Below, in pieces: positions 8,774-13,432 of a DNA stretch of 16,419 bases. The DNA lies in the UHGV virus genome UHGV-0393364. One strand, 5' to 3'. The notes under the pieces are model-generated. The model saw nothing but the letters and a program-made list of their open reading frames with translations. It searched no databases and was not told where the DNA came from. The position numbers and the translations under genes were made by a program. Within the stretch, counting starts at the first letter, position 1. The number at the start of each line of letters is the position of its first letter. The stretch is from a virus.

Positions 8774-9235
8774 ATGGAACTAAAATTTATTGATAACCCT
8801 GTGCGATTACAGGCCTTTCTTAACGAGCCTGGCAATACCGAAAATATTGTTGAGCCGGGGCACACGTACTACATCAAGCCTGATGCGGTATATCTCGGTA
8901 TCTACGAAGGATTGGTGCTGGCTGGCGTTCATGAAGTGCGTAACTTCTGGCATAGCATTGTTGAATGCCATGCGGTGTACGACCCCGGATTCCGTGGTGA
9001 ATATGCACTGCAAGGGCATCGATTATTCTGCAAATGGCTTCTCGAAAACTCACCATTCCTTAACAGCATTACCATGGTTCCTGACACCACCAAATACGGA
9101 CGGGCAATTATCCGTTTGCTTGGCGCTACCCGTGTTGGTCACCTTGATGATGCTTATATCAGATGTGGTAAACCCGTCGGCGTAACGCTTTATCAGTTAA
9201 CTCGGCAACAATATAAGGAATTCAGCGAATGTTAA
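8774..9235 (+). CDS. Hypothetical protein, 153 aa, first gene of the ejection-protein-like cassette (position corresponds to P22 gene 14)
   Basis: ATG 8774 lies 16 nt after the 53-aa ORF stop; its stop overlaps the next start (ATGTTAA). No motif recognised; the gene-14 analogy rests on position and size only. Confidence 0.7.
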   Translation: MELKFIDNPVRLQAFLNEPGNTENIVEPGHTYYIKPDAVYLGIYEGLVLAGVHEVRNFWHSIVECHAVYDPGFRGEYALQGHRLFCKWLLENSPFLNSITMVPDTTKYGRAIIRLLGATRVGHLDDAYIRCGKPVGVTLYQLTRQQYKEFSEC

Positions 9236-9906
9236 TTACCCATATAGCTCATAAACATCTCAATCGTGCCGTATACGAAAAAGGCGGTGATGGTGGTGCC
9301 TCTAAAGCTCAGGCGAAGGCCCAGCAGCAGGCAATTGATTTGCAGCGCGAGCAGTGGAATACGGTGATGAATAATCTCAAGCCGTATGCAGAAGTCGGAT
9401 TGCCTGCTTTACAACAACTACAAGGACTGATGACTCTGGAAGGGCAGAATAAAGCCGCGAATGATTTCTTTGGTTCTGGTTTATATAAAACACAGGCAGA
9501 TCAGGCCCGTTATCAGAACCTTGTCTCAGCAGAAGCTACCGGGGGGCTTGGCTCAACAGCTACCAGTAACCAGTTATCTTCCATTGCGCCCATGCTTTAT
9601 AACAATTGGCTTAGTGGGCAAATGCAAAATTATGGAAACCTGCTAAATGTCGGGATGAATGCGGCATCAGGGCAGGCAACAGCAGGGCAAAACTACGCCA
9701 ATAATACCGGGCAACTCTTGCAGGGGCTTGGCGCTATTCGTGCAGGTCAGGCGCAGCAGCCATCCAGTCTTGCGCGTGGTATTGGTGGGGCGGCATCAGG
9801 CGCTTTAGCGGGTGCGCAACTTGGTTCCGTTGTTCCGGGTATAGGTAATGTCGCCGGGGCTATTGGTGGTGGGCTTATTGGTCTTGTTGGGGGGCTTGGA
9901 TTCTAA
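9229..9906 (+). CDS. gp7-like putative ejection (E) protein, 225 aa, with C-terminal glycine-zipper hydrophobic tail
   Basis: AAGGAA SD 8 nt upstream; charged N-terminus (MLITHIAHKHLNRAVYEKGGDGGASKAQAKAQ), Q/N/A-rich middle, C-terminal GIGGAASGALAGAQLGSVVPGIGNVAGAIGGGLIGLVGGLGF. Size and position match P22 gp7 (~229 aa) from memory; homology is unverified. Confidence 0.75.
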   Translation: MLITHIAHKHLNRAVYEKGGDGGASKAQAKAQQQAIDLQREQWNTVMNNLKPYAEVGLPALQQLQGLMTLEGQNKAANDFFGSGLYKTQADQARYQNLVSAEATGGLGSTATSNQLSSIAPMLYNNWLSGQMQNYGNLLNVGMNAASGQATAGQNYANNTGQLLQGLGAIRAGQAQQPSSLARGIGGAASGALAGAQLGSVVPGIGNVAGAIGGGLIGLVGGLGF

Positions 9907-11327: not shown

Positions 11328-13432
11328 TGGCTAAAGCATGGAAAGATGTTATCGCCTCTCCACAGTATCAGGCGTTAGCACCAGAACAAAAAGCGCAGGC
11401 TCAGGAGCAATACTTCAATGAAGTCGTTGCCCCGCAAGCCGGAGAAAGTGTAGAGCAGGCTAAGCAGGCTTTTTATGCTGCCTATCCACTACCATCAACG
11501 AATGAAATAGACCGATCCCAATCAGCAACTCAAAATATTCAACATACATCATCTGATAATTCTCTTGCGTCAGGGTATGCAAAGTTAGCTACTCAGCAAA
11601 GAGAGGGGCTTGAGCGTTCAGCAGAACAGGGAGCCAGTCTTGGGGCTGCGATGCGCGATGCTATAACAGGCGAAAGCCGAATGACTCCAGAGATGGAGAG
11701 ACTGCAAAATGTCGCCTCTGCCCCAGAATTGAACTCACTAAGCATGGATGCCCTAAAGGCTGGATGGTCTCAACTTTTCGGCTCTGACGCGTCTCAGGAA
11801 AAGATTCTTCAGGGAATGGGGGCGACATTAAGGCAGGATGAGAAGGGGAATACTATCGTTTCTCTGCCATCAGGTGATTATGCCCTGAACAAGCCGGGTT
11901 TATCACCGCAAGACCTGACTTCGTTTCTTGCTAATGCGTTGGCGTTTACACCAGCTGGCAGGGCTGGAACGGTGCTTGGTGCCATAGGAAAATCAGCAGC
12001 TACAGATTTAGCACTACAGGGAGCCACTAGCCTTGCTGGTGGAGAAGATATTGAACCGTTACAAACGGTAATTTCTGCTGGCATTGGTGGTATTGGTAAG
12101 GGGCTGGAAAATACAGCGAGTGCGGTTTCGAGGGCTGTTCGTGGTGATATGTCGCCTGAAGCAAAGGCTGCTGTCGACTTTGCATCGGAAAGAAATCTGC
12201 CGTTAATGACCAGTGACATGCTGAAAGATAAAACCTTTATGCAGAGTCAGGCTCAGACATTAGGCGAAAGAGTTCCTTTTTTTGGAACCGGTAAGAATCG
12301 GCTGAATCAACAACAAGCACGAGAAAATTTAGTCAGAACATTTAGCGATGGTCTGGGTGGCATTTCTGATAAACAGCTTTATGAATCTGCGACTAAAGGG
12401 CAACAAAAATTCATTGAGGCAGCAGGAAAGCGATATAACCGCATAATTGACGCTATGGGGGATACCCCTGTCGATCTCTCAAACACGGTAAAAGCTATCG
12501 ACAATCAGATTGCCGTGTTAAGCCGCCCGGGCAAATCTCAGGATAGAGCCGCGGTAAAAGTCTTGCAGCAATTTAAAGACGATATCACCAGCGGACCAAA
12601 TGACCTGCGTCTGGCGAGGGAAAACAGAACCGATCTTCGAAAGCGATTTATGGCGTCATCTGACACTGTTGATAAAGATACGCTCCAGAAAGCCAGCGAT
12701 ATTATCTACAAGGCATATACGGCGGATATGAAAAAAGCCGTAGCCAAAAATCTTGGAGCAGACGAAGCCATTAATATGGCAAGGGTTGATCGTTCATGGT
12801 CTAAATTCAATGACATGATGGGAAGAACGCGCGTTCAAAAGGCAATAGCCAGCGGCAAGGCCACGCCTGAGGATGTAACAAAACTCGTTTTTAGCCAAAG
12901 CCCATCAGAACGTTCTCAGCTTTACAGGCTTCTGGATGACAATGGTAGGCAAAACGCACGAGCAGCCATAGTTCAGAATGCTGTAGATAAGGCGACTGAT
13001 CCGTCTGGAAATATCAGTGTTGAGAAGTTTATTAATGCGTTACACCGGAACAGGAAGCAATCAGCAACTTTCTTTAAAGGCGTACATGGAAAGGAACTGG
13101 ACGGCGTTATTAAATACCTCAACGATACAAGACACGCGGCAAAAGCGAACGTTCAAAACTTAAATGGTCAGCAGCTTTATGGATTGTTAGTTGGTGGTGG
13201 CATCATAAACGCAGCAGTATTAGCGGGGATGCTAAAAACGGCTGCGTTTGTTGTTCCTGCTGCTGGTGCCGTAGGCGGAGCAGCGAAGGCATACGAAAGC
13301 CCTGTTATACGAAATGCCTTGTTACGTCTGGCAAATACGCCAAAAGGTAGCACAGCATATGACAGAGCGATCAGTACGGTCACACAATCGCTCACCAGAG
13401 TCGCACAGGCATCACAAAAAGAAGCTCAATAA
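11327..13432 (+). CDS. gp16-like putative ejection (E) protein, 701 aa, with Gly/Ala-rich hydrophobic segment near the C-terminus
   Basis: TAATG overlap at 11325-11329; Ala/Gln/Lys-rich, mostly helical-looking; hydrophobic segment LLVGGGIINAAVLAGMLKTAAFVVPAAGAVGGAAKAY; third and largest member as in the gp7/gp20/gp16 order. Homology is unverified. Confidence 0.8.
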   Translation: MAKAWKDVIASPQYQALAPEQKAQAQEQYFNEVVAPQAGESVEQAKQAFYAAYPLPSTNEIDRSQSATQNIQHTSSDNSLASGYAKLATQQREGLERSAEQGASLGAAMRDAITGESRMTPEMERLQNVASAPELNSLSMDALKAGWSQLFGSDASQEKILQGMGATLRQDEKGNTIVSLPSGDYALNKPGLSPQDLTSFLANALAFTPAGRAGTVLGAIGKSAATDLALQGATSLAGGEDIEPLQTVISAGIGGIGKGLENTASAVSRAVRGDMSPEAKAAVDFASERNLPLMTSDMLKDKTFMQSQAQTLGERVPFFGTGKNRLNQQQARENLVRTFSDGLGGISDKQLYESATKGQQKFIEAAGKRYNRIIDAMGDTPVDLSNTVKAIDNQIAVLSRPGKSQDRAAVKVLQQFKDDITSGPNDLRLARENRTDLRKRFMASSDTVDKDTLQKASDIIYKAYTADMKKAVAKNLGADEAINMARVDRSWSKFNDMMGRTRVQKAIASGKATPEDVTKLVFSQSPSERSQLYRLLDDNGRQNARAAIVQNAVDKATDPSGNISVEKFINALHRNRKQSATFFKGVHGKELDGVIKYLNDTRHAAKANVQNLNGQQLYGLLVGGGIINAAVLAGMLKTAAFVVPAAGAVGGAAKAYESPVIRNALLRLANTPKGSTAYDRAISTVTQSLTRVAQASQKEAQ

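Follow-up and report, generated by a model that had tools for sequence, protein, structure and literature searches.

The closest described relative of the element treated here is EcCIMP1, a 19,963-bp phage-inducible chromosomal island (PICI) of E. coli MP1 (Pick, Stadel and Raivio, ISME J 2025; PMC11773190). EcCIMP1 excises and circularises only in the presence of the P22-like podovirus vB_EcoP_Kapi1, requires its own alpA and int genes for this, and is specifically transduced by Kapi1 (PMC11773190). The products of EcCIMP1_017 to EcCIMP1_019 were called hypothetical proteins with some similarity to DNA transfer/DUF2824 proteins and were considered as packaging candidates; genes were coloured 'DNA transfer' in that study, and no structural genes were identified by its authors (PMC11773190). 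The DNA analysed here is the virus genome UHGV-0393364, a stretch of 16,419 nt that is referred to in its full length as the window. It represents most of a PICI that belongs to the EcCIMP1 family and exploits P22-like podoviruses (Lederbergvirus) as a satellite, and the four-gene cassette at positions 8774-13432 encodes true homologues of the products of P22 genes 14, 7, 20 and 16. What is new is the identification of this cassette as an ejection-protein set; the element itself has already been published. The initial annotation had regarded a satellite with its own ejection proteins as not described. This holds for the ejection-protein set, which had gone unrecognised, but not for the island family, which has been published together with its 'DNA transfer'/DUF2824 genes. 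Besides the paper of Pick et al., no paper on ejection or internal virion proteins in PICIs or other satellites was found in the literature searched.

The cassette consists of four overlapping open reading frames (ORFs) of 153, 225, 473 and 701 aa on the + strand, present at exactly the coordinates first noted, with overlaps of 7, 1 and 1 nt between consecutive stops and starts. The first ORF (8774-9235) encodes a homologue of the P22 gene 14 product (DUF2824; Pfam PF11039, 2e-61; PHROG 651, 2e-66) and the second (9229-9906) a homologue of the ejection protein gp7 (Pfam P22_gp7 PF25688, 2e-72). They are followed by the homologues of gp20 (9906-11327; Pfam Inj_translocase PF16928, 4.5e-58; PHROG 917, 9e-112 over the full length) and gp16 (11327-13432; PHROG 770 'DNA transfer protein', 4e-163). 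The PHROG labels of the cassette proteins include 'DNA ejection' and 'released from the phage upon host infection'. The family of the gene 14 product is annotated as 'head assembly/morphogenesis', and little is said about the function of P22 gene 14 in the open literature searched. The Inj_translocase match comprises residues 34-213 of the 473-aa protein, i.e. the N-terminal domain of gp20, which is conserved, whereas the C-terminal part is allele-specific. By homology, this protein is predicted to be the ejection protein that forms the periplasmic tube, and the 701-aa protein should be the ejection protein of the inner membrane.

Direct comparison with P22 by BLASTP gave 55% identity for gp7 (1e-75), 33% over the N-terminal 320 aa for gp20 (6e-46), 30% over 499 aa for gp16 (2e-58) and 23% for gp14 (3e-8). 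The gene 14 product is 83% identical to Kapi1_055, and in tblastn searches the 701-aa protein could be aligned over its entire length to the gene 16 sequences of ST64T, L and Sf6 (32-33% identity, 1e-74 to 1e-80). The homology, which had been guessed from size, order and composition, is thus borne out by Pfam, PHROG and BLASTP, with profile matches from 4.5e-58 to 4e-163 for the four proteins. The compositional features are also present as first described: a glycine-rich (glycine-zipper) tail ends the 225-aa protein (...GIGGAASGALAGAQLGSVVPGIGNVAGAIGGGLIGLVGGLGF), and a hydrophobic Gly/Ala segment is located near the end of the 701-aa protein (residues 617-649). A sequence search of the four proteins against PDB chains returned no match. 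Chance can be dismissed as an explanation of the cassette, given family E-values of 2e-61 to 4e-163 and hundreds of genomes with the same arrangement.

The gene order 14-7-20-16, ascribed to P22 in the initial annotation, is indeed the same in P22 and in the cassette, and the protein sizes are similar as well (151, 229, 471 and 609 aa in P22 versus 153, 225, 473 and 701 aa in the window). Both modules consist of homologous genes with overlapping stops and starts, and in both of them a gene for a membrane protein on the opposite strand follows directly after gene 16. However, there are also clear differences. In P22 and Kapi1 the module is found in its canonical context, where it ends the virion morphogenesis operon after genes 4, 10 and 26. 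The cassette lacks genes 26, 10 and 4 as well as head genes upstream of it and possesses its own promoter and a leader ORF that does not stem from a phage. Instead of standing at the end of a morphogenesis operon under a phage late promoter, it has as upstream neighbours the primase gene, the iterons, a terminator, the island promoter and the 53-aa ORF. Moreover, its replicon is unable to make virions, and genes 14 and 7 are missing from half of the E. coli islands.

The assignment of the carrier to the satellites, already proposed in the initial annotation, agrees with near-identical genomes that show an island without morphogenesis genes and with the 97.6% DNA identity between window positions 1-10066 and the validated PICI EcCIMP1; the primases of the two elements are 99.6% identical. 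There are 178 complete E. coli genomes that contain the whole window, at approximately 98-99% identity; its location is always chromosomal, and none of the deposited phages contains it as a whole. In near-identical loci (L001, L005) the order is tRNA-Thr beside proA, int, AlpA, AntA, Ash, small ORFs, primase, cassette, AbiD and a PerC-family regulator. The element measures about 18 kb in these genomes and is followed by an unrelated MarR/vat island. It shows an integrase end beside an attachment site, an AlpA-type regulator, a primase-replicase with its origin and a size within the range of about 10-20 kb. No capsid, portal, terminase, tail or lysis family was matched in Pfam or PHROG by the window ORFs of at least 60 aa, no morphogenesis genes are annotated in the near-identical loci either, and neither a terminase nor an Rpp-like protein was found in the window. 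The statement that capsid and packaging genes are missing is therefore correct with regard to proteins but not with regard to cis-acting sites, as copies of helper pac regions are carried (see below). An ordinary prophage arm was rejected on account of the island borders and of the extended context in several genomes, which contains no morphogenesis genes.

The window and EcCIMP1 occupy the same site (tRNA-Thr between proA and yagU, beside the MarR/vat island) and share the same backbone, from int, AlpA, AntA and Ash to the primase, the small ORF, gene 14 and gp7. In contrast, their alleles are unrelated from about 160 nt into gp20 onwards. The gp20 of EcCIMP1 itself has 439 aa and is 48% identical to that of the window in the N-terminus only, and its gp16 has 906 aa, contains a transglycosylase domain and has no BLASTP match to the gp16 of the window. 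In addition, EcCIMP1 carries a lipoprotein-like ORF and a second alpA where the window carries an ORF with four transmembrane segments (4-TM ORF) and AbiD.

Sequence data suggest that the cassette is a separately promoted transcription unit, delimited by a terminator and headed by a conserved promoter with operators and a small ORF. The intrinsic terminator at 8459-8503 (+ strand), a hairpin (-30 kcal/mol, z = -6.5) with a T-run behind it, closes the replication operon. The putative promoter/operator of the cargo operon (8511-8580, + strand), which shows columns of at least 80% conservation in the window and 31 islands from many genera, comprises the operator-like dyads TTTCATATTTTGCAA (8511-8525) and ATTGCGATTTATGAAA (8540-8555), a perfect TATAAT (8557-8562) and CTG-N10-CAG (8565-8580), and a good ribosome-binding site precedes the 53-aa ORF. 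A reading of CTG-N10-CAG as a LexA box was not retained: the window and L038 have the canonical spacing, but CTG-N9-CAG, overlapping the ribosome-binding site, is what most relatives possess, and SOS control is not claimed. The 53-aa ORF itself (8596-8757, + strand) has homologues downstream of the primase in about 31 of the 77 related loci described below; it is island-specific and not of phage origin. Across these roughly 31 islands from many Enterobacterales genera (within loci L010-L071) the leader ORF encodes 53-65 aa, and the cargo behind it varies. An AF2 single-sequence model of the monomer shows an extended N-terminus and two helices (pLDDT 78), an order resembling that of ribbon-helix-helix proteins, so that the ORF may encode a regulator of this type; a Foldseek search of the model against the PDB gave no match.

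The cassette exists in two forms, which either have the order small ORF-14-7-20-16 (window, L001, EcCIMP1, L005, L008) or small ORF-20-16 (L004, L006), with break points at window positions 8744 and about 10010-10040. Among 5,426 E. coli genomes, the junction of the four-gene form was found in 237 and that of the two-gene form in 214. Therefore, gp20 and gp16 constitute the constant cargo, and genes 14 and 7 are optional. The slot is occupied in islands of both integration types, whose integrases and attachment sites (thrW and yicC/dinD) are unrelated. The gp20/gp16 alleles can be completely different between otherwise near-identical islands, with the window allele present in 299 and the EcCIMP1 allele in 72 of the same 5,426 genomes. 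The alleles have clearly been exchanged with P22-like prophages, and strain N53 possesses a complete CUS-3-like P22-type prophage at argW, whose gp16 is 91% identical to that of the window. Among deposited phages, the closest sequences reach only 53% identity for the gp20 of the window, 68% for its gp16 and about 46-52% for the gp16 of EcCIMP1. Compared with Kapi1, the gp20 of the window is 35% identical in the N-terminus only, and a similarity of gp16 is undetectable by BLASTP.

The gp16 ORF is intact with 701 codons in all five island copies checked. The pseudogene flags set by RefSeq (PGAP) on gp16 ('injection protein, missing C-terminus'; L001 26366-28181, L004 14511-16326) are hence artefacts, and since such flags occur on intact gp16 genes in many islands, automated counts of intact cassettes would be misleading. 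Between the window and L006, whose backbone differs from that of the window by about 10%, the ratios of nonsynonymous to synonymous substitutions (dN/dS) are 0.14 for gp16, 0.29 for gp20 and 0.22 for the primase, with similar dS values of 0.26-0.36. The intact copies, together with dN/dS and dS values like those of the primase, indicate that the cassette has diverged along with the island under purifying selection.

The most likely explanation of these observations, to which we assign a probability of roughly 55%, is that the satellite supplies its own DNA-delivery proteins to capsids hijacked from the helper. The lytic cycle of the helper would switch on AlpA, as has been shown for EcCIMP1, and the island would then replicate from its iteron origin. 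The helper terminase would recognise a pac mimic and fill helper capsids with island concatemers by the headful mechanism. The ejection proteins of the island, produced from their own operon, would be recruited into the same procapsids by the scaffolding protein of the helper, as the data on P22 suggest, and after adsorption they would exit the virion and build a trans-envelope conduit for the island DNA. The benefit might be control of the DNA-entry step, most plausibly in the form of an evasion of exclusion systems that block injection, which is the least certain step of the scheme. A different, matched pair of gp20 and gp16 could allow entry into cells that exclude the type of the helper, including lysogens of the helper itself.

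Several findings on P22 are relevant in this regard. Its gp16 and gp20 function only as a matched pair, gp7 is interchangeable between phages, and a foreign gp16 was assembled into P22 particles (Leavitt et al., PMC10461980). This fits the islands, where gp20 and gp16 always occur together and genes 14 and 7 are dispensable. Escape from the superinfection exclusion protein SieA maps to the C-terminal parts of gp16 and gp20, and the ejection proteins of HK620 confer partial resistance to SieA (PMC10461980). The scaffolding protein recruits each ejection protein independently via its N-terminal region and without the portal, and the ejection proteins compete with DNA for space in the head (PMC8402733). 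The N-terminal regions that mediate incorporation in P22 correspond to the conserved parts of the island proteins.

There are also points that weigh against this explanation. That the ejection proteins of the island are expressed and enter particles is something we infer by analogy. EcCIMP1 left the titres of Kapi1 unchanged, and its transfer by Kapi1 was rare with about 5e3 per ml (PMC11773190), so that a co-assembly in this pair would be either harmless or slight. Two types of SieA excluded several quite different sets of ejection proteins, and only that of HK620 escaped in part (PMC10461980); a divergence of alleles alone is consequently no guarantee of SieA evasion. Furthermore, a Kapi1-like prophage was present in only two of 21 strains with EcCIMP1 (Pick et al., PMC11773190), and the purifying selection observed could partly date from the residence of the alleles in phages.

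It is conceivable, although rather unlikely, that the cassette serves to interfere with the helper. The gp20 and gp16 of the island might mispair with those of the helper in virions, or the extra protein might cut the DNA headful, and both would result in non-infectious helper particles, a loss that the multi-copy island DNA would tolerate. P22 particles with only a foreign gp16 or only a foreign gp20 are indeed produced in normal numbers and are non-infectious (PMC10461980), and the island alleles are very unlike those of the helper (35% identity to Kapi1 gp20 in the N-terminus only), with no allele of a deposited phage above 68%. However, the equal titres of Kapi1 after induction with and without EcCIMP1 (PMC11773190) argue against a strong interference, the island would poison its own particles to the same extent unless the two sets segregate, and the optional, interchangeable genes 14 and 7 would be left unexplained. 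A defence of the resident cell, in which the cassette region blocks the entry of P22-like DNA, appears slightly less probable still. It would be exerted by the ejection proteins or, more plausibly, by an envelope protein encoded in the sieA-like slot behind gp16, where the window has a protein with four transmembrane segments and other islands a lipoprotein-like or secreted-type ORF. AbiD is a neighbouring cargo gene, and EcCIMP1 adds to the superinfection immunity of lysogens against Kapi1 (PMC11773190). On the other hand, gp7, gp20 and gp16 have no signal peptides and are made in the cytoplasm, yet they act from outside; such a defence gives no reason to keep a matched gp20/gp16 pair, gene 14 and scaffold-binding N-terminal regions, and the membrane ORF resembles neither SieA nor any PADLOC model.

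We consider it very improbable that the cassette is a mere remnant or neutral hitch-hiker, left over from a P22-like prophage that became fused with the island by deletion or recombination, and without a role for the island. The gene order, including the sieA-like slot, equals the right end of the P22 late operon, thrW is also the attachment site of P22, the island integrase is 50% identical to that of Kapi1, and the exchange of alleles with prophages is evident. But the cassette is located behind a conserved, island-specific promoter and small ORF and not behind phage genes 26, 10 and 4, and it is found in Leclercia as well as in islands that differ in integrase and site. Its ORFs are intact and under purifying selection with a dS like that of the backbone, EcCIMP1 excises and transfers as a unit, and an analogous cargo of conduit proteins is found in the same slot in other genera.

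If the island indeed equips hijacked capsids with its own ejection proteins, the entry step would be under the control of the satellite. The known tactics of satellites are to steal capsids, to resize them, to redirect packaging or to build heads of their own, and supplying only the ejected delivery proteins would differ from all of these. It could also explain that gp20 and gp16 rank among the most mosaic genes in P22-like phages, with the islands acting as a reservoir of alleles. An island of this kind is present in approximately 8% of the complete E. coli genomes, among them those of O26 and other pathogenic lineages, and defence genes (AbiD) and a PerC-family virulence regulator travel with these islands as well. 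A published genetic system, consisting of EcCIMP1, Kapi1 and E. coli MP1, and the P22 tools available in the Casjens and Teschke laboratories allow a direct test of the idea.

The proposed packaging of the island by helper terminases is consistent with the presence of sequences that look like captured pac signals of several helper terminase types. Window positions 2412-2519 (- strand) contain a copy of a P22-type pac region, which consists of a pac-like 22-mer (2497-2518) and about 87 nt of adjacent gene 3 sequence. The copy aligns with positions 3-110 of P22 inside gene 3, starting at the annotated pac site (4-25), with an E-value of 4.5e-38, as compared to a best E-value of about 0.2 for shuffled controls. 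The 22-mer shares 17 of its 22 positions with P22, and the 87 nt that follow show 96.6% identity. For 117 P22-like phages, the match is restricted to this stretch and falls inside their small terminase genes (terS), with pac annotations. The 22-mer GAAG(A/G)TTTTTGTGGAGTCACTA is kept in every island copy that was captured in the correct orientation; it agrees with coliphage Louie at 18 of 22 positions and lies within the natural variation of pac. The pac-region copy is located antisense inside the annotated ORF of the Ash family.

A candidate for a second pac mimic is a 25-nt element at 2581-2605 (+ strand), 60 nt from the pac-region copy, which agrees in all positions with a segment inside the small terminase gene of the N53 prophage, a gene of the N53/CUS-3 type (L007 5544-5568, E 6e-8). 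Exact copies of the 25-mer in IMG/VR are confined to 53 phage terS genes and 15 islands, and its flanks are unrelated in three diverged island lineages. A degenerate second copy of the N53-type 25-mer (TATAGTTTTTAGAGTCCATAAAAAAC) is found at 8419-8441 (+ strand), and the Leclercia island L038 possesses two degenerate copies (15363-15424) just upstream of its small ORF. Finally, a conserved intergenic region of the window (13988-14299, + strand) contains three copies of ATTT(T)nG(C/T)GAC(A/C)AGTACGCG, which resemble nt 172-189 of Kapi1 terS, the position equivalent to that of the N53 25-mer in its own gene. We do not call these copies a Kapi1-type pac mimic, since the exact match of 14 nt is not significant alone, and keep them as a weak lead.

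If functional, the pac mimics would explain the packaging of the island, a point left open by the authors of EcCIMP1. The poor transfer of EcCIMP1 by Kapi1 may then reflect that the terS of Kapi1 belongs to a type without a clear mimic, whereas the clear mimics match other types. Satellites that copy a packaging signal of their helper are well known, for instance P4 with the cos site of P2, cos-type SaPIs such as SaPIbov5, and E. coli PICIs that combine cos with Rpp. Like these, the island has no terminase gene, and a helper-derived cis site appears to direct the helper terminase. The putative signal of the island differs in that it is a headful pac region from inside the small terminase gene of the helper, and at least two putative signals from different terminase types lie side by side in the island.

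With the primase as an anchor, 77 loci from species of the Enterobacterales were collected. Within this set, the small ORF is not followed by a P22-type cassette except in a contig of Escherichia, identical to the window, and in Leclercia adecarboxylata, whose island carries EcCIMP1-type alleles at 83-88% identity next to a primase that is only 68% identical; two further diverged islands were present among viral contigs. Elsewhere the slot is occupied by other proteins. In 10-11 loci (L012, L013, L022, L026, L028, L029, L032, L034, L051, L058) it holds a protein of 106-109 aa and a tape measure protein of 857-1,245 aa, and in others (L010, L027, L066, L071, L050, L062) SLT-domain 'lytic tail/internal virion' proteins of about 590-635 aa. 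A group of internal proteins of the virion is found in L020, L023, L045, L035 and L031, and in Leclercia sp. EMC7 the slot contains four genes for an internal virion protein (PHROG 418), an SLT protein of 888 aa and virion proteins of 565 and 849 aa. The possibility that the loci with tape measure cargo are PICIs embedded in a helper was discarded: a tRNA gene followed by an integrase stands at their start, and their 132 ORFs include no recurrent family of capsid, portal or terminase proteins (of the families hit by a single ORF, some were listed).

In long-tailed phages the equivalent DNA conduit is presumably formed by tape measure proteins, and altered ones escape exclusion of the Ltp type and by HK97 gp15 (PMC10461980). 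The common theme of the slot is proteins that leave the virion to build the channel for DNA entry. According to a preprint of December 2025, tape measure proteins are otherwise not found in satellites, apart from mycobacterial EPIPs with a tape measure gene and a proposed TMP-like protein of PLE11 (PMC12822802). In the literature searched, no report on a cargo of tape measure or internal virion proteins in related tRNA-integrated islands was found. Satellites that encode virion components are also known in the form of the capsid-forming PICIs. The island would resemble these, the EPIPs and PLE11 in that a satellite supplies some of the structural proteins of its own particle, and would differ from them in that it supplies only internal, ejected proteins of the DNA conduit and no capsid, connector or tail shaft.

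One might go further and tentatively regard these elements as a widespread lineage of Enterobacterales PICIs, in which a dedicated, separately regulated slot (two operator dyads, promoter and 53-aa leader ORF) houses DNA-conduit proteins of the helper type that re-equip stolen virions. In Escherichia and Leclercia these would be ejection proteins of P22, in Leclercia sp. EMC7 the internal virion proteins of another podovirus, and in Klebsiella, Pantoea, Erwinia and others a tape measure protein with its small partner. Their purpose could be the entry into lysogens that exclude the helper, as injection blocks (SieA, HK97 gp15 and the Ltp type) target such machinery. This generalisation is possible, but we regard it as clearly less likely than the explanation given above for the capsids filled with the island.

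Behind gp16, an ORF of 139 aa on the opposite strand (13451-13870) encodes a protein with about four membrane-spanning segments as judged from hydropathy. It lies 18 nt past gp16, and in P22 sieA lies 22 nt past gene 16; an identification as SieA has positional support only. No similarity to P22 SieA, the only SieA compared, was seen (pairwise BLASTP E = 0.06 without composition correction), and the ORF has no tblastn match in 50,697 phage records and no match in PHROG or PADLOC. The content of this slot varies between islands; next to the 4-TM ORF of the window, it comprises a lipoprotein-like ORF (EcCIMP1; L002 11749-12447) and a protein with a signal peptide (L006 18219-18617), and none of them belongs to a recognisable family.

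At its left end the window begins inside the gene for a tyrosine integrase, of which the 3' end is present (1-238, + strand; position 1 aligns inside the int of EcCIMP1). In L001 and L005, int adjoins tRNA-Thr. An AlpA-type helix-turn-helix regulator/excisionase follows at 615-818 (+ strand; PHROG 66/2790 'excisionase and transcriptional regulator', 3e-11). AlpA is the master activator of the island cycle in EcCIMP1 (PMC11773190), and the protein accession of AlpA is identical in L001 and MP1. Two RNAs were predicted upstream of the Ash domain, namely an isrK-like small RNA (2645-2721, + strand; Rfam RF01394, 63 bits at a gathering score of 50) and a C4 antisense RNA (2746-2833, + strand; RF01695, 80 bits at a gathering score of 45), which together constitute a control module of the P1 immI type (c4/icd/ant). 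As these RNAs lie inside the annotated 342-aa 'Ash' ORF and the Ash domain covers residues 124-219 only, the N-terminal third of this ORF is probably not coding.

The island replicase is a primase-helicase with Zn ribbon, Toprim and DUF927 (5252-8011, + strand; Pfam; PHROG 1139 'DNA primase', 6e-179). As first described, the cassette comes directly after this primase and its presumed origin, which comprises six iterons at 8037-8147, i.e. three direct copies of GTTGGTTCA (8037-8063) and three inverted ones (8107-8147). A second iteron array is located at 16218-16350 in inverted orientation relative to the first (inverted repeats I1, I2 and I9, with 95% complementarity over 55 nt). The two GTTGGTTCA arrays are 8.2 kb apart, bracket the cassette and the accessory genes and recall ori and crr of P4. 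The likeness to P4 is limited to the alpha-like primase and this ori/crr-like pair of arrays; the other ORFs matched no family of the sid, psu or delta type, and no specific search for a P2-type cos site was made. An abortive-infection gene of the AbiD type (14628-15650, + strand; Pfam Abi_2, 2e-52; PADLOC AbiD, 8e-58) represents accessory defence cargo. It is placed between the cassette and the second iteron array, a variable accessory region that contains a second alpA or insertion sequences in other variants.

Both ends of the island fall outside the window, which does not include the att core TCCTATTATC. The last 55 bases of the window (16365-16419) repeat, in inverted orientation and with 98-100% identity, a segment from the left end of related islands, where it lies 60-114 nt downstream of tRNA-Thr. 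The matches of the window in E. coli all end at 16370 and then run on into PerC. Together, the inverted last 55 bases and the common end of the E. coli matches suggest that the source genome carries a rearrangement or a different right end.

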